Of a stretch of 18,126 bases of DNA, positions 1,364 through 14,326 are shown piece by piece. How positions within the stretch are numbered: position 1 is the first letter of the stretch; each line of letters opens with the position of its first letter. The position numbers and the translations under genes were made by a program. The DNA lies in IMG/VR virus record IMGVR_UViG_2671180699_000003. The stretch is one strand, 5' to 3'. The notes under the pieces were generated by a model. That model made no database searches, was not told the DNA's origin, and worked only from the letters and a program-made list of their open reading frames with translations. Origin of the DNA: a virus (taxonomy: Duplodnaviria; Heunggongvirae; Uroviricota; Caudoviricetes).

Positions 1364-2416
1364 TTATTTCCCCACCAGCTCGTTTATCTCTTTCACTGTC
1401 TGGTTAAACCGCTCTGACTCAAGCTCAACACCTAAGGCCCGACGCCCCAGCGCCATTGCTGCTTTTATTGTGGAACCGGATCCCATAAAAAAATCAGCAA
1501 CCAGATCACCAGGTCGACTACTGGCATTGATTATTTGCCTGAGCATATCCGCCGGTTTCTCACACGGATGTTTACCCGGGTAGAACTGAACGGGTTTATG
1601 CATCCAGACATCGGTATAAGGCACGGAGACTGATACGGAGAAATAGCGCCGGAGAGATTTAAACTCATCCAGCAATTCAGAATATTTGCGATTCAGTGAA
1701 TCATAAGATGCCACCAGCTGGTGGTGTGGTTGTTCCAGTTGTTGTTCCTGAAACTTCTCTGCCGCTATACGGGAAAACAGTGCCTGTAACTTCCGATAGT
1801 CAGCCTCATTCGGCAACTGCCACTGACTGGCACCAAACCAGTGGGAAACCATATTTTTCTTACCTGTGGCTTCGGCAATTTGTTTTGCCGTTATACCCAG
1901 TTCGGCACGAGCATCCCTGAAATACGATATCAGCGGTGCCATTATGTGCTGTTTGAGTTCCCTTTCTTTTGCCGCATAGCCGTCACTTTTGCCGCGATAT
2001 GGCCCCTGGTAATGTTCAGCAAACAGAACGCGCTCTGTGGCAGGAAAATATGCGCGCAGACTTTCTTTATTACACCCATTCCAACGTCCGGACGGCTTCG
2101 CCCAGATGATATGGTTAAGCACGTTGAAACGTTCACGCATCATGATCTCAATATCAGATGCCAGGCGATGCCCACAGAACAGGTAAAGGCTTCCGGCAGG
2201 TTTTAACACCCGCCAGAACTGGGCCAGACAGTGGTCCAGCCACTTAAGGTAATCTTCGTCCCCTTTCCACTGATTGTCCCAGCCGTTGGGTTTCACCTTG
2301 AAGTACGGCGGATCGGTAACAATCAGGTCAATGGAATCATCAGGCAGGGACTGAATAAAATGCAGGCAATCAGCGTTGATTAAATCAGCACTGTTTATTT
2401 TTACAGTATTTTTCAT
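1364..2416 (-). CDS. DNA methyltransferase, beta-class amino-MTase (N6-adenine or N4-cytosine), 350 aa
   Basis: ATG start. N-terminal motif IV DLIVTDPPY and C-terminal motif I FFMGSGST (order IV...I is beta-class). No restriction endonuclease nearby, so it looks like an orphan phage MTase. Confidence 0.8.
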   Translation of the reverse strand: MKNTVKINSADLINADCLHFIQSLPDDSIDLIVTDPPYFKVKPNGWDNQWKGDEDYLKWLDHCLAQFWRVLKPAGSLYLFCGHRLASDIEIMMRERFNVLNHIIWAKPSGRWNGCNKESLRAYFPATERVLFAEHYQGPYRGKSDGYAAKERELKQHIMAPLISYFRDARAELGITAKQIAEATGKKNMVSHWFGASQWQLPNEADYRKLQALFSRIAAEKFQEQQLEQPHHQLVASYDSLNRKYSELLDEFKSLRRYFSVSVSVPYTDVWMHKPVQFYPGKHPCEKPADMLRQIINASSRPGDLVADFFMGSGSTIKAAMALGRRALGVELESERFNQTVKEINELVGK

Positions 2417-2566
2417 GGATCAGTAAGCGTAACTCTGGTAGGCTCACTCTGCTTTTGCGCTAAAGCAGTGGGCCGTGGTTCGCTTGTGACCAGTAAGCAT
2501 GAGCGAATGGCTGGCAGGTGCTACCAACACCCACCAGCCGCCCATTTTCACAGCAGGAAACCGCCA

Positions 2567-3046: not shown

Positions 3047-3664
3047 TCAATTATCTTCCAGGCCGGATGCTATCAACGAAAGCCTCTCAAAAAACGCTGT
3101 AGCAGCCTTGTCCAAAGTTGAATAAGTACTGTATTCTCCGTGTTCGGGACCAACCACTACCCATGGTCGTCTTTTTGGGATTCGGGACTTCTCAGAAATC
3201 ACTGTTCCAGATATACCAATATCAATTGTTACACCTGTTATTATTTTCTCTTCATCTCTTTCCCTGAACTCAATTGCCATAAATGCCGTTTTTTTTCGTT
3301 TCCCGTTTTTAAAAAAATCAAATAAAGCAAAGCGATGCTCATTAAAATCAACACCCCATCGTCCTTCAGGATAAAGGGCATGAAAGTTGTCATTTACGCT
3401 CTGCATCGTCTCATAAGCTTTAACTTCTAAATCTCCATAGTGCATAGATACCGCGCAGGAGTCACTGGGTAACTGTATTTTCCCAAGATTGAAAACCTTT
3501 ACTGCTCCAGAACTATGGCATCTTGCCCGCAATTTATCCCCATTTATACTAATCGGAGAAATATTCCTTAATGTTCCGGGCTGGCTCCCTCCTAAGTAAA
3601 CGACTGTTAAAGATTGCTTATTTTCAATTGCATCAACTAATACATGCTCTACATTTTTATCCAT
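3047..3664 (-). CDS. hypothetical cargo protein, 205 aa, with a possible N-terminal WYL-like beta-barrel
   Basis: Start set at the ATG at 3664 (MDKNVEHV...), which has a GGGAGG SD 7 nt upstream, rather than the ORF-track start at 3691. The segment LTVVYLGGSQPGTLRNISPISINGDKLRARCHSSGAVKVFNLGKIQL resembles the WYL pattern by eye. AT-rich compared with its neighbours. Confidence 0.55.
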   Translation of the reverse strand: MDKNVEHVLVDAIENKQSLTVVYLGGSQPGTLRNISPISINGDKLRARCHSSGAVKVFNLGKIQLPSDSCAVSMHYGDLEVKAYETMQSVNDNFHALYPEGRWGVDFNEHRFALFDFFKNGKRKKTAFMAIEFRERDEEKIITGVTIDIGISGTVISEKSRIPKRRPWVVVGPEHGEYSTYSTLDKAATAFFERLSLIASGLEDN

Positions 3665-3665
3665 A

Positions 3666-3702
3666 ATAACCTCCCGATGAACAGGTATCATCAGGAGGTT
3701 AT
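3666..3702 (-). promoter_or_regulatory. 15-bp hairpin sequestering the SD of the 205-aa gene
   Basis: Inverted repeat ATAACCTCC(C/T)GATGA ... TCATC(A/G)GGAGGTTAT with a 7-nt loop. The GGGAGG SD sits in one arm and the start codon lies 1 nt beyond the stem. Confidence 0.5.
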
Positions 3703-3739: not shown

Positions 3740-4111
3740 CTATATGTAACAATCAATTTCTAAAGATACCCCCAACATTGCCAGACAACCGTCAATAAAC
3801 CCTTCAGCTTTCTGCAGTCTGATAACAACCTGATTAAGTGATATCCCCAGTTTTACCCCCAACGCCCGTAATGTAACCCCATACACATAATACATTTCCA
3901 GTAATTCGTATTGATACGGTTCCTTTTTCTTAAGAACTGTCATTGCAGAGCTAATGATCAGGCCATCGTCATCGCTACATTGCGGGCGGGATTTTACTTT
4001 CGAAGGAATTAATCCCTTAAAACCTGCAGCAACAGATGACCATTCCACATCCTCGTGATTATTTGCCACCCATGCCCCCCAACGTTCAAGAACCATTTGA
4101 ATATCACGCAT
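3740..4111 (-). CDS. quuD: late-gene antiterminator Q (QuuD-like), 123 aa
   Basis: Product MRDIQMVLERWGAW..NNHEDV.WSS.AAGFKGLI.SKVKSRPQC.DDDG... matches my recollection of DLP12 QuuD. ATG at 4111 has a GGAGA SD; the ORF-track start at 4126 is a TTG. Confidence 0.8.
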   Translation of the reverse strand: MRDIQMVLERWGAWVANNHEDVEWSSVAAGFKGLIPSKVKSRPQCSDDDGLIISSAMTVLKKKEPYQYELLEMYYVYGVTLRALGVKLGISLNQVVIRLQKAEGFIDGCLAMLGVSLEIDCYI

Positions 4112-4128
4112 CAACTTTCTCCACAAAA

Positions 4129-5124
4129 TCAGGCCAGCACGCCTATTGCCAGCGCACGATCGATAAAACGAAATATCAGCTCCAGCTGGGAGCCATACTT
4201 CTCTTCAAATGCCACGGTATCCGCATGCAGCTCGTCGTGATGCTTTCTGCACAAAGGCAACACAAAGAGGTCATGCGCTTTTGTACCCATTCCACCCTGA
4301 CCGTGGCCTATCAGGTGGTGGGGATCATCAGCAGGCTTTCCACAACATGCACACGGCTGTGTCTTAACCCAGCGCGTGTACTTTTCATTAACCCAGCGGC
4401 GGCGTTTTGGGCGTAACATAAAAGACTCCGGCGACTCCGGATCCACTTTCAGCGCCAGCACCTTTTTCGCTTTATCCTGGATGATGCTGGTGGCAGGAAC
4501 CGAAGGCACAAGGTCACTCTCCCGGGTGACAGACGGCACAACAGGTTTCGGTAATCTCAGCGCCTTACGGGCTGCGCTTTCAGGTAAGGCATCCGCCAGG
4601 TCATTACGAATCAGCCACCAGCACAGTTCCGGCATTGTCACGGCATGGTTATCATCAAAACCGAGATCCCGACGGACTACAGACAACACCCAGCGGGCAC
4701 AGTTATCCGTTGCCATTGATTCCAGCCGTTCCGTGAACTGATCGCGCAGCTGGTTATCGCAGTGCCAGCACAGACGGATTGCGCCCGGAGCGTGTCGCAT
4801 TGTGGTCATGTTCTCGCTGTGCCAGTCGGAATGAGGCCACTGGCAGCCTTTTTCACGAAGTAACCAGCTTTCAAGACATTCCACGCCACCAGCACGACGG
4901 ATCACTGCCTCATTGCGGAACACGGCCCGAACGGCAGGATCATCCGCCAGCGGTTGTGATACCGCCGGAACGGCACCACTGGCGAAAGATGAATAACGTT
5001 CCGGCTCAGGCTCCAGCAGGACACGCCCCTGCATAAACAGGGGCATCAGCTCTGAACCTGGCCTGAACAATACGATCCCCATACGCGGGGCAATTTCAGG
5101 GGTCAGTAGTGCTCTCACGGTCAC
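4129..5124 (-). CDS. DUF968-like nin-region protein with C-terminal HNH-like Cys/His motif, 331 aa
   Basis: C-terminal CACCGKPADDPHHLIGHGQGGMGTKAHDLFVLPLCRKHHDELH. GTG start. Sits between the KilA-N gene and Q. Confidence 0.5.
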   Translation of the reverse strand: MTVRALLTPEIAPRMGIVLFRPGSELMPLFMQGRVLLEPEPERYSSFASGAVPAVSQPLADDPAVRAVFRNEAVIRRAGGVECLESWLLREKGCQWPHSDWHSENMTTMRHAPGAIRLCWHCDNQLRDQFTERLESMATDNCARWVLSVVRRDLGFDDNHAVTMPELCWWLIRNDLADALPESAARKALRLPKPVVPSVTRESDLVPSVPATSIIQDKAKKVLALKVDPESPESFMLRPKRRRWVNEKYTRWVKTQPCACCGKPADDPHHLIGHGQGGMGTKAHDLFVLPLCRKHHDELHADTVAFEEKYGSQLELIFRFIDRALAIGVLA

Positions 5125-5125
5125 C

Positions 5126-5935
5126 TCAATGAACGGTATCGAGCAGCTTTAACAGCTCAGGGAATCGGGATTCGAAGAAATGCGGCTGCGTCTCACGCGG
5201 ATTTGCGGGACTGGTGATGTTCTTGCCGAACATGCAGCCTTTCGCCGTCAGCGACCAGAATTTTTTGATGTTGTTAATCCCGGTACGGCTGTATCGTTCG
5301 CGCTGCTCGACGATCCCCAGCTTCACCATCTGGTGATATGCCTGATTAGCCGTCAGGCGGATACCATACTGCTTCAGCAGTGCACTCAGCGACAGCGTCG
5401 GGCGGCTTGAGCCATCAGGCGCGTCAGCAGGTGCATCAATGGCATAGCGCGGTGCCAGATTCGGTAAGCCAACAGCCTCCTGGAGTTTCTGACAGGCACC
5501 AAGCACTGAAGAGTTAGACAGATTTAACTCCCGGCGCATAAAGTCCAGCAGGATCACGCCAGCCTGCATCTTGTCAGCAGCCTGTCCGGATAACTTTTCC
5601 GGCGCGCTGGTTACCATATCGAAAGTACGGATCACCTTCAGATGGAATGACGGGCTGATCCACATTGCATAGGCATACACCAGTTCCTTACAGACATACG
5701 TTCCCCGTTCATTTCCCCCATGAATCACACTCACCGGGTCAACACCCAAATTCTGGGTGTTGGTTAATTCATGAACAAGCTCAACAGTTTGTTGGCTGGA
5801 AAGAAACTTTCCTGGCTCCTTGGTTCTGGCATTTGCACCAGATGCTACTGCTGCGCGATGCAGATCGTTCAGGCTGTAACGCCCATAAGCATCACGACGA
5901 ACTTCAATACCATCAATGACCATCAGATTATTCAT
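5126..5935 (-). CDS. KilA-N domain protein (antirepressor-like), 269 aa
   Basis: N-terminal KilA-N-like region (VIDGIEVRRDAYGRYSLNDLHRAA...). GAGGAG SD 9 nt upstream of the ATG. Confidence 0.6.
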   Translation of the reverse strand: MNNLMVIDGIEVRRDAYGRYSLNDLHRAAVASGANARTKEPGKFLSSQQTVELVHELTNTQNLGVDPVSVIHGGNERGTYVCKELVYAYAMWISPSFHLKVIRTFDMVTSAPEKLSGQAADKMQAGVILLDFMRRELNLSNSSVLGACQKLQEAVGLPNLAPRYAIDAPADAPDGSSRPTLSLSALLKQYGIRLTANQAYHQMVKLGIVEQRERYSRTGINNIKKFWSLTAKGCMFGKNITSPANPRETQPHFFESRFPELLKLLDTVH

Positions 5936-5954
5936 ACTTCGTTTCTCCTCTTAA

Positions 5955-6344
5955 TCAGGCAGCTGCACCCGCCGTTTTCTCGTACTTACTGATAGTGATC
6001 TCGACCTTCCCTTCCGGGATAACCGGTCCCCACTCCACCAGCATTCTTTTCACCTGACTGTCGTCTTCCCACACCCCCGCGTGGGTCAGGGCGTCAAACA
6101 GCGCCTTGTTATAGTTGTCCAGATCGCGGATCCTGTTATCCGGAGGAAACAACACGATCTCCACTGAAGCAGGTGCCGACGTTGGTTTCGGCAGACGACG
6201 TAACTGCTCAACTATTGCTGCACACGCCGCGCTCTGGAATTTGCGCCCCGCCGCGCTTATCAGGCTCTTACCTGCAAACGCCACTTTGTTGGGGTGTCGC
6301 CAGTACGTGTTCACGCTGGGCGGAAAAGGCAGTATTAGCTTCAT
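5955..6344 (-). CDS. rusA: RusA Holliday junction resolvase
   Basis: 129 aa with LPFPPSVNTYWRH and RDLDNYNKALFDALTHAGVWEDDSQV, matching the RusA family catalytic region. Confidence 0.85.
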   Translation of the reverse strand: MKLILPFPPSVNTYWRHPNKVAFAGKSLISAAGRKFQSAACAAIVEQLRRLPKPTSAPASVEIVLFPPDNRIRDLDNYNKALFDALTHAGVWEDDSQVKRMLVEWGPVIPEGKVEITISKYEKTAGAAA

Positions 6345-6667
6345 ACTTTCAGGCCCCTCTCATGTAACCAGTGGGCTGCACGCAACCTGGCGTTCTCCTC
6401 ACCGGCAAGCAGTGCGCGGATGATACCGACCGCCTCGCTGTCGTCGTCCTTCACCGCGGTATGAAGCGTGATGCCCCGGGCCACGCCACGCTTTATCGTG
6501 ATGACGCCTTTTTTCTCCAGTGCGCGAAGATGCTCCACCGCTGCATTCACTGAACGGTATCCCAGCATGGTTGCCACCTCCTGATTGGTTGGCGGGAAGC
6601 CACGTTCTTTCTGATAAGAAATCAGCATATCCAGCACCTGCTGCTGGCATTGAGTTAACGTCGTCAT
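6341..6667 (-). CDS. LexA N-terminal DNA-binding domain protein (no S24 peptidase domain), 108 aa
   Basis: QQQVLDMLISYQKERGFPPTNQEVATMLGYRSVNAAVEHLRALEKKGVITI closely parallels the LexA winged-helix N-terminus. ATGA overlap with rusA. Confidence 0.65.
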   Translation of the reverse strand: MTTLTQCQQQVLDMLISYQKERGFPPTNQEVATMLGYRSVNAAVEHLRALEKKGVITIKRGVARGITLHTAVKDDDSEAVGIIRALLAGEENARLRAAHWLHERGLKV

Positions 6668-7317
6668 GCCGCCATCTCCCTGACCAGTTTTTCTGCCTGC
6701 TGGCGAACCTGCGCCAGAAAGGCCTCACCACATGCCTCAAGTTCATCGCGCCCGATGTAGCTGATTGCCGGTCCCTTCCAGGTCTTGTCGAAAACAGCAA
6801 TAGCACCAGCGAAGAAAGCGCCTGTCGGCACCTGCTTCTCATCCTTCGGGATAAACCAGGCAGGCAGTTCAAAACCAATACGCCCGCGAATAAAAGCAAT
6901 ATGATCTGCATCTTCCGGCCACCACACTTCGCTGGTGGCAGCTTTGATCAGGAAAACATAGCGCCCGCCTTTATCACGCATGGCACTGGCATGCTTCATG
7001 ATGTAACGCATGCCGGTGATGTATTGCCCCTCATGCTGACTGGCGCGGCTGTATGGGGGATTACCAAAGGCAGCACCTTTAAGCTCCGCAAGGCGTTCTG
7101 ACCAGTCATGCGCCAGCGCGTTGTCTTCCGCCGTGTAATACGCAGCACATTTGGCGTTATCACCGTCAGTGAACAGATCCAGAACAAACGGGCCAAACAG
7201 GGTGTTAATTCCCCAGAAAATGTTGTCCGGCGTGCGCCACTGATCGCCCACTTCCTTCAGTTCATGGGCTGGTTTGTTCCGCAGTTCCGCCAGCGCCTGG
7301 CAATATTTATTACTCAT
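6664..7317 (-). CDS. phage Dam-like N6-adenine DNA methyltransferase, 217 aa
   Basis: NPPY catalytic motif (FGNPPYS). Start set at ATG 7317 (MSNKYCQ...), which overlaps the upstream stop as TAATG, rather than the GTG at 7350. Confidence 0.7.
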   Translation of the reverse strand: MSNKYCQALAELRNKPAHELKEVGDQWRTPDNIFWGINTLFGPFVLDLFTDGDNAKCAAYYTAEDNALAHDWSERLAELKGAAFGNPPYSRASQHEGQYITGMRYIMKHASAMRDKGGRYVFLIKAATSEVWWPEDADHIAFIRGRIGFELPAWFIPKDEKQVPTGAFFAGAIAVFDKTWKGPAISYIGRDELEACGEAFLAQVRQQAEKLVREMAA

Positions 7318-7805
7318 TAAGCCCCCACGTAATTCCCTGAGAGATACCACTCTTCACCTGATGCAGCCCGCTTACTGCTTTTCCGTAAACACCGTTCACG
7401 ACGCGCCAGAAAATTGTTTCGTTCTGGCTGGGAGTGGCTTTCACGGAATGCCGCCATCCACACCGTTGCAGCACGACGGTATAAGCCCCTCGACTCCAGT
7501 TCTTCAGCCTGGCGGGTCAGGCACAAAATCACCCGGGGGTCGTTAGTGCCGACATAGAACTTGCGCACAGGTCTGGTTTCACGAACTGGTTGTGGTTCCG
7601 GCTCCTGCGCTCTCTCAGTCAGGCGCGAGAAATGTCTGCGTGTATCTCCTTCACAACGGTGAGCCACACGCCCACTCTGACGTAACTTGCTTGCTGACTG
7701 CAGAACGCGCTGCCGTGAGTAACCTGCAAAAGCATCCGCAATGTCTCCGGAAGTACAGCCCGGATGGGCTTCAATGAATTTCTGAACTTCATTCAAAATA
7801 CTCAT
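7317..7805 (-). CDS. PerC-family transcriptional regulator-like protein, 162 aa
   Basis: C-terminal LESRGLYRRAATVWMAAF resembles the PerC/Pch signature (GLWRRAA..W). ATG at 7805 has a GGGGTGA SD; the ORF-track start at 7811 is a GTG. Confidence 0.5.
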   Translation of the reverse strand: MSILNEVQKFIEAHPGCTSGDIADAFAGYSRQRVLQSASKLRQSGRVAHRCEGDTRRHFSRLTERAQEPEPQPVRETRPVRKFYVGTNDPRVILCLTRQAEELESRGLYRRAATVWMAAFRESHSQPERNNFLARRERCLRKSSKRAASGEEWYLSGNYVGA

Positions 7806-7807
7806 GC

Positions 7808-8800
7808 TCACCCCCTGAATCCTGCCGGGATCTGGCTGTAGTCCACGTTGTCGTAACTGGATTTGAAATATGGGTCTTCGCGTTTTTCTGTGTATGTGCT
7901 GACGGACGGCGATAAGCGCAGGGAAAGCTCATCCCATTTTTCCCGCAGCTTCGACGGGCTGAGCACGTTACGGCACCAGAACGGATCGCGGCTGACGCGG
8001 CTGTACATCTCGCAGATTTGTTTGTGAGTACGACCATCCTGCACACACATCAGGCGAATTTCGTTTGCCCAGGCTGTCCAGTTCGGTTCTTTGGGACGAA
8101 CCACCTCGCCGTCACATTCGGCGGCCTGCTCGTACAGGGCGATGATTTTTTTCCAGAGCCACTGTGCGCAGGTCAAATCATCCTGCGTTCCCCACTGGCG
8201 CTTTTTAGGGCTGAATACAACCGCATCAGGATGGCGAGTTAAAAACTCCTGTTCAGCCGTTTGCGTGTCCGGTTGCGAAGCGTCCGGACGAGAAGAGGTT
8301 TTATTCTCTGTAGTAATCTCTGTTGTATTCTCTGTAAGATCATTGGGCCATTTTGACCCGATGACAGCGTGTCGTTTTGAACCAATGGATCGTGTCATTT
8401 TGCGCCCATCCATCAGGTCACTTTGACCCGATGGAGAAGTGCATTTTGACCTGATGGATTCGTTCACTTTGACCTCTTCTAAAAGCTCACTTTCATAGTT
8501 GATCGTGTAGAAGTTGGTCATGTCACGCTTCGATTTATTGAGTTGCTCGCGACGCAAAACCCCAAGTGATTTCAGGCTTGCAAATGTGCGTTTCAGAGTG
8601 GACTCTGACCAGAACGGAAACTGCTCCAGCCACTGTTCTGTCGTGTTATAAACCCAGCGAATTCCGCCATGCTCAGTGCCTGAATTCGTTTCATTCAGCC
8701 AGTAATGAAGCTGCTGCAACACAATTGCCTCATTCAGACCAATACGGCATGCAAGATCACGATTTATCACAATGGGCTGGGATGTCATTAACAGGCTCAT
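7808..8800 (-). CDS. replication initiation protein (lambda O-like organizer with a conserved phage C-terminal domain), 330 aa
   Basis: N-terminal winged-helix replication-protein motif and a conserved phage C-terminal region (PFWCRNVLSPSKLREKWDELS). Iterons lie inside the coding sequence. GGAGGTG SD upstream. Confidence 0.7.
   Translation of the reverse strand: MSLLMTSQPIVINRDLACRIGLNEAIVLQQLHYWLNETNSGTEHGGIRWVYNTTEQWLEQFPFWSESTLKRTFASLKSLGVLRREQLNKSKRDMTNFYTINYESELLEEVKVNESIRSKCTSPSGQSDLMDGRKMTRSIGSKRHAVIGSKWPNDLTENTTEITTENKTSSRPDASQPDTQTAEQEFLTRHPDAVVFSPKKRQWGTQDDLTCAQWLWKKIIALYEQAAECDGEVVRPKEPNWTAWANEIRLMCVQDGRTHKQICEMYSRVSRDPFWCRNVLSPSKLREKWDELSLRLSPSVSTYTEKREDPYFKSSYDNVDYSQIPAGFRG
8349..8476. 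repeat. origin iterons: about five direct repeats CAYTTTGACCYGATGGA at 23-24 bp spacing
   Basis: Copies at 8349, 8373 (degenerate), 8419, 8442 and 8465 (partial), plus an inverted partial copy TCCATCAGGTCA at 8409-8420. They fall in the linker region of the O-like gene, as in lambda ori. Confidence 0.65.
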
Positions 8801-9021
8801 GCCGCACCTCCGAGATGCTTCATGTTTTTTCCGGAGCGAAAGGCTATAAGCGGCATACTGACGCGGTAATTACGGCCCAGCGGTTCACAAATCACCTTCT
8901 GACATTCACGGTCAACCAGGCTAACACGTAGAACATGCCCTGCAGGCGTGGTGTACCACTGACCGGGGCGAGGACAACGGAAAGTCTGATTGGTAAATCG
9001 TTTGAAAATATTCCGGATCAT
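8797..9021 (-). CDS. hypothetical protein, 74 aa
   Basis: AAGGGGG SD 5 nt upstream; ATGA overlaps with both neighbours. Confidence 0.4.
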   Translation of the reverse strand: MIRNIFKRFTNQTFRCPRPGQWYTTPAGHVLRVSLVDRECQKVICEPLGRNYRVSMPLIAFRSGKNMKHLGGAA

Positions 9022-10166
9022 TTGCGCCCCCTTACCTCTGAAGAGTTCAGCGACGAATGAATAAGACGGGCAAGAAATGCCGCATCGTTAATTCGGTCAT
9101 ACAGACTTACAGCCAGAGGTGATTCAGCTTTTTCCAGCATGGGATAAAGCTGCTGCAACCAGACCTGATGAATTGATGAAATGTAGGAATAGAGAACGCT
9201 GGCGTTATGTGCAACGTCGCTCGGTACAGCGGGCTTTGAAAGCTGTTTCTCCATCTGGTTAAAGGCATTGATGTATGCCTCTTTGAACTGGGCAGCACGT
9301 TTACCCGTGAAACCCATAGCAAGAAACGCAAAGCCGTCGCGGGTTATTTGATAGCAAGGTAGTTTGCGGCCTGTGCAATCGGTGTAATCACTCACCGAAA
9401 AATTGCGGGCAGTGAATGATGCGGAACATTCAAGCGTGCGGATCTTTTTCAGTACATCGTCATGACGTTTGGAGAAGAAGTTGGCAACAGCCAGGGATGA
9501 AGTAACAGCCTGACCATCAACGATGGCAATTTCAGGTTGAGTGAGGGTTGGGATCGTAGCCATGATGGCAGTCTCCGATAACAGTGAATTACCTTCACCA
9601 CCGGAAACGCCAATTTCGCTGGTGGTGAACTGAACGGGGTTGGCGTAACCGGCGTTATCGGAAACCGGCGCACCTTTCGGTGCCCCCGTCCAGCCCACCA
9701 TAATTTGGGTGTGCACAGACGCAGACGATAAAAAAGACGCTGGCGCGTCATATATCGCCGATAACATTTCCAGGACGCCAATCCCGACACCCGCTTTATA
9801 AGGTGCCTGAACAGTGTAACGTCCCGGAATGGCAGAATCAATGTGCTGGTGGTCCTTCACACTCAACAAAATCACGCCTGAATTTCCACAAAGGACTAAA
9901 GCACTCATGCGGGTAGTCTTTGCGAAGATAGATAACGCGCTGTGTTTCTGGCTCCCAACGAATAACATGGACATAAAGCCCTCTTCCGTCACGAAACCAG
10001 CGGTTAAGTTCCTGCACAACTCGCCCCCCACAGTCAGGTAAAGTTCTCTGTGGTTACTTACAGCCAGGTGATTTGGTAATCTGCATTCATGCCGTAACAA
10101 CAGGTGTTCAGCGACGCTGACCACCAGCTGTTGCGACAAACGGTTATTTGCCGTTAAACTGTTCAT
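9018..10166 (-). CDS. Rha-family phage regulatory protein with a ~200-aa N-terminal extension (382 aa; alternative internal start at 9563 gives 181 aa)
   Basis: Rha-like motifs QAVTSSLAVANFFSKRHDDVLKKIR and ITRDGFAFLAMGFTGKRAAQFKEAYINAF begin at residue ~202. The ATG at 9563 has a GGAGA SD, but the frame stays open upstream to an ATG at 10166 that overlaps the upstream stop (ATGA). Confidence 0.55.
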   Translation of the reverse strand: MNSLTANNRLSQQLVVSVAEHLLLRHECRLPNHLAVSNHRELYLTVGGELCRNLTAGFVTEEGFMSMLFVGSQKHSALSIFAKTTRMSALVLCGNSGVILLSVKDHQHIDSAIPGRYTVQAPYKAGVGIGVLEMLSAIYDAPASFLSSASVHTQIMVGWTGAPKGAPVSDNAGYANPVQFTTSEIGVSGGEGNSLLSETAIMATIPTLTQPEIAIVDGQAVTSSLAVANFFSKRHDDVLKKIRTLECSASFTARNFSVSDYTDCTGRKLPCYQITRDGFAFLAMGFTGKRAAQFKEAYINAFNQMEKQLSKPAVPSDVAHNASVLYSYISSIHQVWLQQLYPMLEKAESPLAVSLYDRINDAAFLARLIHSSLNSSEVRGRK

Positions 10167-11048: not shown

Positions 11049-11723
11049 ATGAAAACAGTCCATGACATCCGGCGGTCTAACGCCAGAAAACTGAGAGATG
11101 GTGTTGGCGGGAATTCTTCCTTTGCCACCATGATTGATCGCGAGCCAACCCAGACCAGCAGGTTTATGGGAGATGGTGCTACTAAAAATATCGGTGACAG
11201 CATGGCACGGCACATCGAAAAATGTTTCGACCTGCCTGTCGGATGGCTTGATCAAGAACACCAGACAACAAACATCACAAAAAAACCTGATGTTTCAATT
11301 ACTAACAAACAAATAACGTTAGTCCCTGTCATATCATGGGTACAGGCCGGAGCATGGAAAGAAGTTGGCTATTCTGAGGTTGATTTGAGCACAGCAGAAA
11401 CTTATCCCTGCCCTGTACCCTGTGGCGAAATGACTTATATCTTGCGGGTGATTGGTGATTCAATGATTGATGAGTACCGCCCGGGAGACATGATTTTTGT
11501 TGATCCTGAAGTCCCTGCCTGCCACGGTGACGACGTTATTGCATTGATGCACGATACAGGCGAAACCACCTTCAAGCGGTTGATAGAAGATGGAACACAG
11601 CGTTACCTCAAAGCATTAAACCCAAACTGGCCTGAACCTTACATTAAGATCAACGGTAATTGCTCTATAATTGGTACAGTGATTTTCTCAGGAAAACCAA
11701 GAAGATACAAAATAAAGGCCTAA
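11049..11723 (+). CDS. CI-like phage repressor (N-terminal HTH, C-terminal S24 LexA-type autopeptidase), 224 aa
   Basis: C-terminal GDSM (Ser nucleophile) and TFKRL (Lys) S24 motifs; HTH-like N-terminus; divergent from cro. Confidence 0.85.
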   Translation: MKTVHDIRRSNARKLRDGVGGNSSFATMIDREPTQTSRFMGDGATKNIGDSMARHIEKCFDLPVGWLDQEHQTTNITKKPDVSITNKQITLVPVISWVQAGAWKEVGYSEVDLSTAETYPCPVPCGEMTYILRVIGDSMIDEYRPGDMIFVDPEVPACHGDDVIALMHDTGETTFKRLIEDGTQRYLKALNPNWPEPYIKINGNCSIIGTVIFSGKPRRYKIKA

Positions 11724-13789: not shown

Positions 13790-14326
13790 ATGTCATTTAT
13801 TAAAACTTTTTCCGGGAAGCATTTTTATTATGACAAGATAAATAAAGACGACATCGTTATTAACGATATCGCGGTTTCCCTTTCAAATATCTGTCGCTTT
13901 GCAGGACATCTTTCACACTTCTACAGCGTCGCCCAACATGCGGTGCTTTGCAGCCAGCTGGTACCGCAGGAATTTGCTTTTGAAGCGTTAATGCATGATG
14001 CAACAGAAGCATATTGTCAGGACATCCCCGCACCACTGAAACGCCTTCTTCCTGACTATAAACGGATGGAAGAAAAAATAGACGCCGTAATCCGTGAGAA
14101 ATACGGGTTACCTCCTGTTATGAGCACGCCAGTGAAATATGCCGATCTCATTATGCTGGCAACCGAACGCCGCGATCTCGGGCTTGATGATGGTTCTTTC
14201 TGGCCTGTACTGGAAGGTATCCCGGCGACAGAGATGTTCAAAGTTATTCCACTGTCACCAGGCCATGCCTACGGGATGTTTATGGAACGTTTTAACGAGT
14301 TATCGGGGTTACGCAAATGCGCATGA
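13790..14326 (+). CDS. yfdR: YfdR-like HD-domain phosphohydrolase, 178 aa
   Basis: ATG at 13790 with a GGAGA SD. His/Asp residues spaced as in an HD domain (AGHLSH...HDATEAY...D). 178 aa, the same length as K-12 YfdR. Confidence 0.65.
   Translation: MSFIKTFSGKHFYYDKINKDDIVINDIAVSLSNICRFAGHLSHFYSVAQHAVLCSQLVPQEFAFEALMHDATEAYCQDIPAPLKRLLPDYKRMEEKIDAVIREKYGLPPVMSTPVKYADLIMLATERRDLGLDDGSFWPVLEGIPATEMFKVIPLSPGHAYGMFMERFNELSGLRKCA

Follow-up and report, generated by a model that had tools for sequence, protein, structure and literature searches.

A common enterobacterial prophage gene encodes a LexA-type DNA-binding head without a peptidase domain and may specify a RecA-insensitive occupant of SOS boxes

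The LexA repressor of Escherichia coli (1LEA, 1JHH, and 3JSO) is the product of a chromosomal, autoregulated gene and joins a winged helix-turn-helix (HTH) head, through a hinge that follows the wing, to an S24 peptidase/dimerization domain with residues Ser119 and Lys156, which undergoes RecA-stimulated self-cleavage. In crystal structures, contacts with DNA are mediated mainly by S39, N41, A42, and E45, with CTGT recognized mostly by direct readout (PMC11442139); an older list of contact residues adds E44 (PMC3091678). The cleaved N-terminal fragment binds 10- to 1000-fold more weakly but represses residually, and its removal by ClpXP is needed for full SOS induction (PMC11442139). When fused to any interacting pair, as in two-hybrid assays, the LexA DNA-binding domain (DBD) represses LexA operators (PMC12369361). 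Phages have captured the head as well: gp6 of the Bacillus thuringiensis tectivirus GIL01 is a truncated LexA homologue, ~44% identical to the head of host LexA, whose K38 reads its own palindrome, GaCACAnnTGTGaC, and which activates the late promoter (PMC6182141). Here, we describe a LexA-like gene located at positions 6341..6667 (minus strand) of an 18,126-nucleotide stretch of DNA from a Caudoviricetes virus (IMG/VR record IMGVR_UViG_2671180699_000003), hereafter the window.

The gene starts with ATG, specifies 108 amino acids plus a stop codon, and is matched by Pfam, NCBIfam, and PHROG profiles. Residues 1 to 68 (6464..6667, minus strand) form a winged HTH homologous to LexA residues 1 to 68, as judged from AlphaFold2 (AF2), Foldseek, and HMMER. 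Residues 1 to 65 cover the whole PF01726 (LexA_DNA_bind) profile, positions 1 to 65 of 65, with E = 2.9e-19 and 69 bits at a cut-off of 23.7. The HMMER alignment with E. coli LexA is ungapped over residues 2 to 70 (PDB 1lea, E = 6.5e-16), and BLASTP against the same protein yields 39 identities in 90 positions (E = 1e-21). Two AF2 models, with mean confidence scores (pLDDT) of 81.8 and 86.1, contain three helices (residues 6 to 22, 28 to 35, and 40 to 52) and a two-stranded wing (56 to 58 and 66 to 68); in Foldseek, the first of them fits the LexA-DNA crystal structure 3JSO with a root mean square deviation of 1.0 Å over 68 columns at 50% identity. No PF00717 (Peptidase_S24) match was returned by the Pfam search, the protein ends at residue 108, and the next open reading frame (ORF) is that of RusA. 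The lexA equivalog profile TIGR00498 is matched only at positions 1 to 91 of 203, and the score of 70.5 bits lies below its cut-off of 110.95. A first-pass annotation made from the letters of the window had described a LexA winged-helix head without the S24 domain; the complete PF01726 match, the lack of PF00717, and the ungapped alignment of a head ~50% identical to the N-terminal region of LexA all bear this out. The LexA-like protein is a member of the PF01726/PHROG 362 group but, lacking the S24 domain and failing the equivalog cut-off, is not a LexA repressor proper. By hypothesis, it may nevertheless act as LexA does.

The recognition helix, read from the translation and the alignments, comprises residues 39 to 52, SVNAAVEHLRALEK (6512..6553, minus strand), where LexA has SPNAAEEHLKALAR. 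Compared with the contact residues of LexA, which we took from the two secondary sources cited above (PMC11442139 and PMC3091678), the LexA-like protein reads S39-V-N41-A42-A-V44-E45, so that all four contacts of the crystal set and four of the five of the older set are identical, and the only changed one is E44, which is replaced by V. The wing residues R64-G65-I66 are the same as in LexA and invariant across the family. The first-pass annotation had made conservation of the DNA-contacting residues of helix 3 the touchstone of its proposal that the protein binds SOS boxes, and these residues are conserved.

Past the wing, the LexA-like protein, as LexA does, has a flexible hinge. The hinge starts at residues 69 to 73 (6449..6463, minus strand), with pLDDT below 50 at about residues 71 to 75 in both models. 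Where LexA has its C-terminal domain, a helical hairpin of 30 residues follows: Residues 74 to 108 (6344..6448, minus strand) are predicted from the AF2 models and column conservation to form a two-helix hairpin in place of the S24 domain, with helices at 75 to 88 and 93 to 103 and a pLDDT of ~90 in both models. The tail helices are amphipathic. Hydrophobic positions 79, 80, 82, 83, 86, 87, 93, 97, 98, 100, and 101 are conserved; in columns of family members, A97 and L101 are invariant and G105 is nearly so. No structural match to the tail was found in the Protein Data Bank with Foldseek. The predicted template modeling score (pTM) of the models is only 0.56 to 0.59, which, together with the hinge, suggests that head and tail are two units without a fixed mutual orientation. 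Since an amphipathic hairpin of ~30 residues is unlikely to be stable alone, it may be expected to pair with that of a second copy. Hinge, low pTM, and conserved amphipathic pattern are what a dimerization module would show, and the tail is plausibly one.

The HMMER and BLASTP alignments run on through the cleavage-site region of LexA and place A88-G89 (LLAGEE) of the LexA-like protein opposite the scissile A84-G85 (VAAGEP). This raises the idea of a decoy, or pseudo-substrate, in which the hinge-tail segment would sit in the active site of LexA, CI, or UmuD, or would engage RecA*, and in this way modulate cleavage. However, the segment is confidently predicted to be helical rather than strand-loop, and the AG dipeptide varies among family members: It is AN in Citrobacter-type members, and S, D, C, or E occur elsewhere. 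The catalytic domain is absent. To our knowledge, the N-terminal domain of LexA has no part in RecA* binding. We find a decoy scarcely credible.

The gene is not new; it is a common prophage gene that has already been annotated. It is present in 2233 of 5426 complete E. coli genomes and, at 95 to 99% DNA identity, in about 50 phage records, among them SfV (orf42), SfII, SfIV, mEp460, the cdtI phage, and Stx2a, Stx2c, and Stx2k phages. More distant relatives, recovered by an exhaustive profile search at 40 to 50% identity, all come from Enterobacteriaceae (Citrobacter, Salmonella, Cronobacter, Kosakonia, Enterobacter, Cedecea, and Klebsiella) and keep both the length and the C-terminal segment. 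A scan of viral contigs with the single protein gave only copies of 98 to 100% identity. Among 83 copies, there are 58 DNA alleles and 11 protein variants, with a pN/pS of 0.04, a value biased low by the choice of loci by protein identity. The gene is thus under purifying selection, and the ratio, along with the conserved length and tail, rules out a pseudogene or a remnant of full-length LexA. The PHROG 362 profile (“transcriptional repressor”) is matched along its entire length (residues 1 to 108 against positions 1 to 106 of 106; E = 1.6e-59, 199.7 bits); the length range of ~105 to 135 amino acids and the lambdoid prophage context in the seven lineages considered below are also those of this group. 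PHROG 362 and the RefSeq “LexA family protein” denote the same gene family. Other labels are “LexA DNA binding domain protein” in mEp460 and “repressor, lexA family” in Stx2a phages, and a survey of Stx phages lists the gene as a pham with domain pfam01726 (PMC8136144). Some records read “SOS-response repressor and protease LexA” or “RecA-mediated autopeptidases”; judged from the sequence, these labels are wrong, the protein having no protease domain. Labels of the PHROG 362 family derive from domain content, not from assays, and we found no study on the function of this family in the open-access literature.

We propose that the LexA-like protein is a RecA-insensitive surrogate of LexA, dimerized by its tail, that re-occupies SOS boxes during lytic growth, a reading to which we assign a little less than an even chance. 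The winged-helix head would read the same CTGT half-site as host LexA, and the hairpin behind the hinge would stand in for the S24 domain, on which both dimerization and self-cleavage of LexA depend. Two hairpins would pair, probably as a four-helix bundle, and bring two heads onto one SOS box. Produced once the prophage is induced or a cell infected, by which time the host's LexA has been cleaved, the protein would re-occupy SOS boxes of the host chromosome, of the phage (for example, that at 2389-2408, described below), and of co-resident LexA-controlled elements, irrespective of the state of RecA. Such a mechanism is physically plausible: Since the free N-terminal domain of LexA and DBD fusions repress, a stable head provided with a dimerizer may be expected to hold SOS operators closed and to be proof against RecA*. 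The proposed logic is the same as that of LexA-DBD fusions, in which a LexA head with a heterologous dimerizer occupies SOS operators regardless of RecA*, and of the LexA(Ind−) mutants G85D and S119A (1JHF and 1JHH), which are uncleavable and leave operators occupied. Those are laboratory constructs or mutants, whereas the LexA-like gene is natural and widespread, and its dimerization and operator binding are putative.

The closest phage relative in design points elsewhere. Like the LexA-like protein, gp6 is a phage-encoded, stand-alone LexA head without an S24 domain, made from an early operon after SOS induction, and it acts on a late promoter through a palindrome of its own (PMC6182141). 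By this precedent, the LexA-like protein could be a phage-specific transcription factor, that is, a captured head that reads a lineage-specific phage operator, controls nin-region or late genes as a repressor or an activator, and does not act directly on the SOS regulon of the host. Stand-alone LexA-head proteins are frequent in phages, as matches among predicted viral structures (BFVD) show, and the place of the gene just upstream of the RusA-DUF968-antiterminator genes is kept in seven lineages. In contrast to gp6, which we compared by description only, the LexA-like protein keeps the LexA contacts and has a conserved tail; retention of every contact seen in the crystal structures would be unexpected after retargeting. 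The phages also differ, lambdoid siphoviruses and myoviruses of Enterobacteriaceae in one case and a tectivirus in the other.

Mosaicism of the surrounding DNA bears on the same alternative. In 80 viral contigs encoding a LexA-like protein 98 to 100% identical to that of the window, the segment from ~4300 to ~6700 is common to at least 97% of loci, with a dip to 83 to 87% within 5500-6100. The other modules are shared much less: Q by 7% of loci, the late region by 23 to 35%, the immunity region by 40%, and the replication region by 6 to 30%. The E. coli–type protein is thus nearly invariant while the modules on which a phage-specific factor might act are exchanged. The only co-inherited DNA is coding from wall to wall, its largest gap being 19 bp, and holds no suitable palindrome. 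A search for inverted repeats at 4100-7900 revealed no CTGT-type palindrome, and no site there exceeded 7.8 bits with the matrix described below; a phage-borne operator in the co-inherited block was therefore rejected. Given a near-invariant protein, a reshuffled neighborhood, and a gap-free block, it is improbable that the E. coli type has its operator at a promoter carried by the phage. Most simply, the target is one that does not reshuffle, either the host chromosome or a generic motif. The two features that characterize gp6, a co-inherited late-promoter operator and a retargeted recognition helix, are both missing from the E. coli type (Q and late modules, 7 to 35%). Mosaicism therefore argues against a gp6-like late-promoter role in this type, and an invariant, host-borne target of a LexA surrogate fits the pattern better than a phage operator does. 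We consider a phage-specific transcription factor unlikely, if a serious alternative.

All seven lineages have the gene in the nin region of a lambdoid phage, with RusA, DUF968, and antiterminator genes after it, apart from exceptions at RusA. The rusA gene adjoins in five lineages (the window and loci L002, L005, L092, and L094, with a 67–amino acid ORF intervening in L005), is missing from the Klebsiella locus, and is set apart by an opposite-strand gene in Cronobacter. A DNA methyltransferase gene precedes the LexA-like gene, directly or with one small ORF between, in four of the seven, and it belongs to different families (PF05869, PF00145, and a PF00145 + MethyltransfD12 fusion). Among close loci, dam is common to only 65% (at ≥85% identity). 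The link to dam is loose, while that to RusA-DUF968-antiterminator is conserved. A gene so placed might encode a DNA-binding accessory of the RusA, KilA-N, and DUF968/HNH-like block, which would bring these enzymes to phage DNA during its replication, or hold them back there, with no control of transcription. The start/stop overlap with rusA, the adjacency in five of seven lineages, and the co-inheritance of the LexA-like, RusA, KilA-N, and DUF968 genes in 83 to 100% of the 80 loci speak for it. Small DNA-binding proteins also occur beside resolvases in other nin regions, lambda NinH being an analogy. On the other hand, a winged helix with conserved base-reading residues implies sequence-specific binding, rusA is absent or separated in two lineages, and linkage in the nin region may mean only that a compact operon offers no recombination breakpoints. 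An accessory role therefore appears improbable to us. A small remaining chance we leave to none of the readings considered here.

The window was scanned with an approximate position weight matrix (PWM) based on 20 SOS boxes of E. coli, which themselves range from 12.2 to 26.3 bits. The only strong LexA-type site is a canonical box at 2389..2408, CACTGTTTATTTTTACAGTA, an exact CTGT-N8-ACAG scoring 22.0 bits, compared with a maximum of 18.0 bits over 200 shuffles. It covers codons 4 to 10 of a late-region N6_N4 methyltransferase ORF and makes a candidate target of host LexA and, should our hypothesis be right, of the LexA-like protein. In phages of Citrobacter, Klebsiella, and Morganella, CTGT and ACAG of this box are kept while the spacer varies; the same box occurs at loci L008, L009, L010, and L092 (9739-9758), and in a Salmonella prophage it lies upstream of the called start. 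This conservation suggests that a methyltransferase gene ahead of the lysis genes is under LexA control. All 27 E. coli/Shigella phage records with this methyltransferase also have the LexA-like gene. We nevertheless rejected the box as a dedicated target, since the two genes are ~4 kb apart and hence linked, and the box also occurs where tblastn found no homologue of the LexA-like protein. Within 10 kb, SOS boxes of at least 19.9 bits are present in 44 of the 80 close loci.

Two other features were seen around such boxes. The 150 bp upstream of the methyltransferase (window 2417-2566) are conserved across genera beyond the level of coding sequence, including the pieces CTGTGAAAATGGGCGGCTGGTGGGTGTTG and a CTGCTTT...AAAGCAG stem; they have no Rfam match and may be an unrecognized RNA or a regulatory element of the late leader. 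A box of 25 to 26.5 bits, TACTGTAT[A/G]TAAAAACAGTA, occurs at 14204-14223 of phiSTEC1575-Stx2k (L001) and in about 20 of the loci L011 to L090, where it falls within the linker-coding portion of a repressor gene that is CI-type (HTH + S24) but belongs to a different immunity type; read in the frame in which the methyltransferase box gives N-T-V-K-I-N-S, it specifies N-T-V-x-K-N-S.

Canonical SOS boxes (20.0, 26.1, and 26.5 bits) are located just upstream of the LexA-like gene itself in three lineages of the seven, one box in each. In the Klebsiella lineage (L093) the box precedes dinI, in the Enterobacter/Cedecea lineage (L005) it comes directly after a promoter-like TTGCAA-17-AATAAT, and in the Salmonella lineage it comes after a terminator. 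An ORF of 75 to 96 amino acids (orfX) lies between box and gene in all three (L005 5713-5961, L092 6724-6951, and L093 6775-7065), with 45 to 57% pairwise identity and no Pfam family; it is absent from the window and was dismissed as part of the present locus. A second conserved ORF, of 67 amino acids, follows the LexA-like gene in two of these three lineages. As far as its upstream sequence tells, the LexA-like gene is under LexA control in these lineages, as the autoregulated lexA gene is, which ties the family to the DNA damage response.

Several observations weigh against a LexA surrogate that reads SOS boxes, foremost the behavior of the contact residues in relatives. Among 13 tail-bearing members of the family, none has E at position 44, which is V, A, T, F, L, or Y; 8 retain E45, the remaining ones having G, D, L, I, or T there; and A42 is changed to T or G in 3. 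The members with altered E45 come from Citrobacter, Cronobacter, Klebsiella, Salmonella, and Cedecea, and A42 is sometimes altered in them too. LexA of these enterobacterial hosts recognizes the same SOS box. A dedicated mimic would be expected to be frozen at positions 42 and 45, and the variation makes the family look like DNA-binding proteins of drifting specificity. Diversification at 42, 44, and 45 despite a single SOS box in the hosts, with backbone and wing fixed, is also how immunity-type specificities evolve, as expected of a phage-specific factor, and gp6, the one characterized phage truncated LexA homologue, shows that captured heads can be retargeted. Two of the three lineages with upstream boxes (Salmonella P0137 and Klebsiella P0312) have an altered residue 45, so host LexA alone is the best explanation of their boxes, which are no proof of self-regulation. 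Phage records of Citrobacter and Morganella in which no homologue of the LexA-like protein was found by tblastn have the methyltransferase box as well; dimerization by the tail is reasoned from monomer models; and the scan depended on the approximate matrix. The proposal of the first-pass annotation that the protein is a non-cleavable repressor or competitor at SOS boxes is thus supported in part: Architecture and contact residues of the E. coli type speak for it, and the variation at 42 and 45 in relatives and the gp6 precedent speak against it.

The LexA-like gene is phage-borne and forms part of an early lytic operon. A GGGAG Shine-Dalgarno sequence (6676-6680, minus strand) is located 8 nt ahead of its ATG. 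The stop codon of dam and the start codon of the LexA-like gene overlap in ATGA (6664..6667, minus strand), as do the stop of the latter and the start of rusA (6341..6344, minus strand), in agreement with the translational coupling to a Dam-like methyltransferase and rusA claimed in the first-pass annotation. The upstream neighbor encodes a phage N-6-adenine methyltransferase of the Dam type (6664..7350, minus strand; PF05869, E = 1.2e-45); the ORF called mechanically starts at 7350, and the RefSeq homologue starts at the equivalent of 7317. On the other side are genes for the RusA Holliday-junction resolvase (5955..6344, minus strand; PF05866, E = 6.9e-15; also matched by PHROG) and, by Pfam, for a KilA-N protein (5126-5935, minus strand) and a DUF968/HNH-like protein (4129-5124, minus strand); the latter two complete the co-inherited block and accompany the LexA-like gene in at least 83 to 99% of the 80 loci. 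Directly upstream of dam, a PerC/YfdN-type transcriptional activator gene (7317-7811, minus strand) is co-inherited with the LexA-like gene in 91 to 94% of related loci, adding another small regulator to this compact operon. Alternative ORFs overlapping 6341-6667 (6371-6553, plus strand, and 6399-6911, minus strand) had no family support and were discarded. Rfam has no match at the locus, and PADLOC places the LexA-like gene in no defense system, a CARF match (E = 3.6e-4) reflecting only winged-HTH similarity.

The whole rightward operon, on the minus strand, runs through cro-like, CII-like, Rha/Ash, replication protein, PerC/YfdN, Dam, LexA-like, RusA, KilA-N, DUF968, and Q genes. A CI-type repressor gene with an S24 domain (11049-11723) is divergently transcribed. 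From this position, we infer that the LexA-like gene is expressed after loss of the CI repressor, once host LexA has been cleaved. Q is followed by a WYL-domain gene, then by a small ORF and the N6_N4 methyltransferase gene, which in a complete homologous prophage is followed by lysis and terminase genes. From 1313 on, the window is the early/regulatory region of a lambdoid prophage. Bases 1-1302, with an NlpD-like LysM/M23 gene and a tRNA-Gly (ccc, 835-908), are unrelated to it and joined by ten N (1303-1312); since no complete E. coli genome has both parts together, the window spans a scaffold join.

Three further observations concern the neighborhood. The WYL-domain gene (3047-3691, minus strand), so named by RefSeq and without a Pfam or PADLOC match, lies between Q and a putative late promoter/terminator (~2890-2960), an unusual place for a regulator. 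In the early operon, Rfam detected a C4 antisense RNA (82.8 bits; 9618-9705, minus strand) and isrK (61.5 bits; 9730-9806, minus strand), both inside the 382–amino acid Rha/Ash ORF (9018-10166), an arrangement that resembles the P1-type immI (c4/ant) antirepressor module. In the late region of the Salmonella prophage of L092 (10794-12390), adjacent AcrVA2-like and Cas1 Pfam matches are located on the opposite strand beside the SOS-boxed methyltransferase.

Should the LexA-like protein read a site of its own, it would be one more small phage regulator of modest interest; the gp6 precedent makes either outcome informative. The full proposition, that ~4 in 10 E. coli genomes carry a prophage-borne, uncleavable LexA surrogate that closes SOS operators again regardless of RecA*, is put forward tentatively, and on balance we lean against it. 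If it is true, the engineered LexA-DBD fusions would have a natural counterpart in this protein, and the outcome of capture would be the opposite of that in gp6, where the captured head became an activator. Made at the onset of the lytic program or, in certain lineages, of the SOS response itself, the surrogate would allow the phage to end the damage response of its host and to silence LexA-controlled rivals, such as colicin operons and prophages with LexA-controlled antirepressors. Where an SOS-box promoter precedes the gene, sometimes together with dinI, the phage would carry a module for negative feedback on the SOS response. The way in which E. coli, Shigella, and Shiga toxin–producing strains end their DNA damage response would then be altered by a very common prophage gene, with a bearing on antibiotic-induced mutagenesis, on the induction of Stx phages, and on the rivalry of prophages and colicin plasmids that share a cell.

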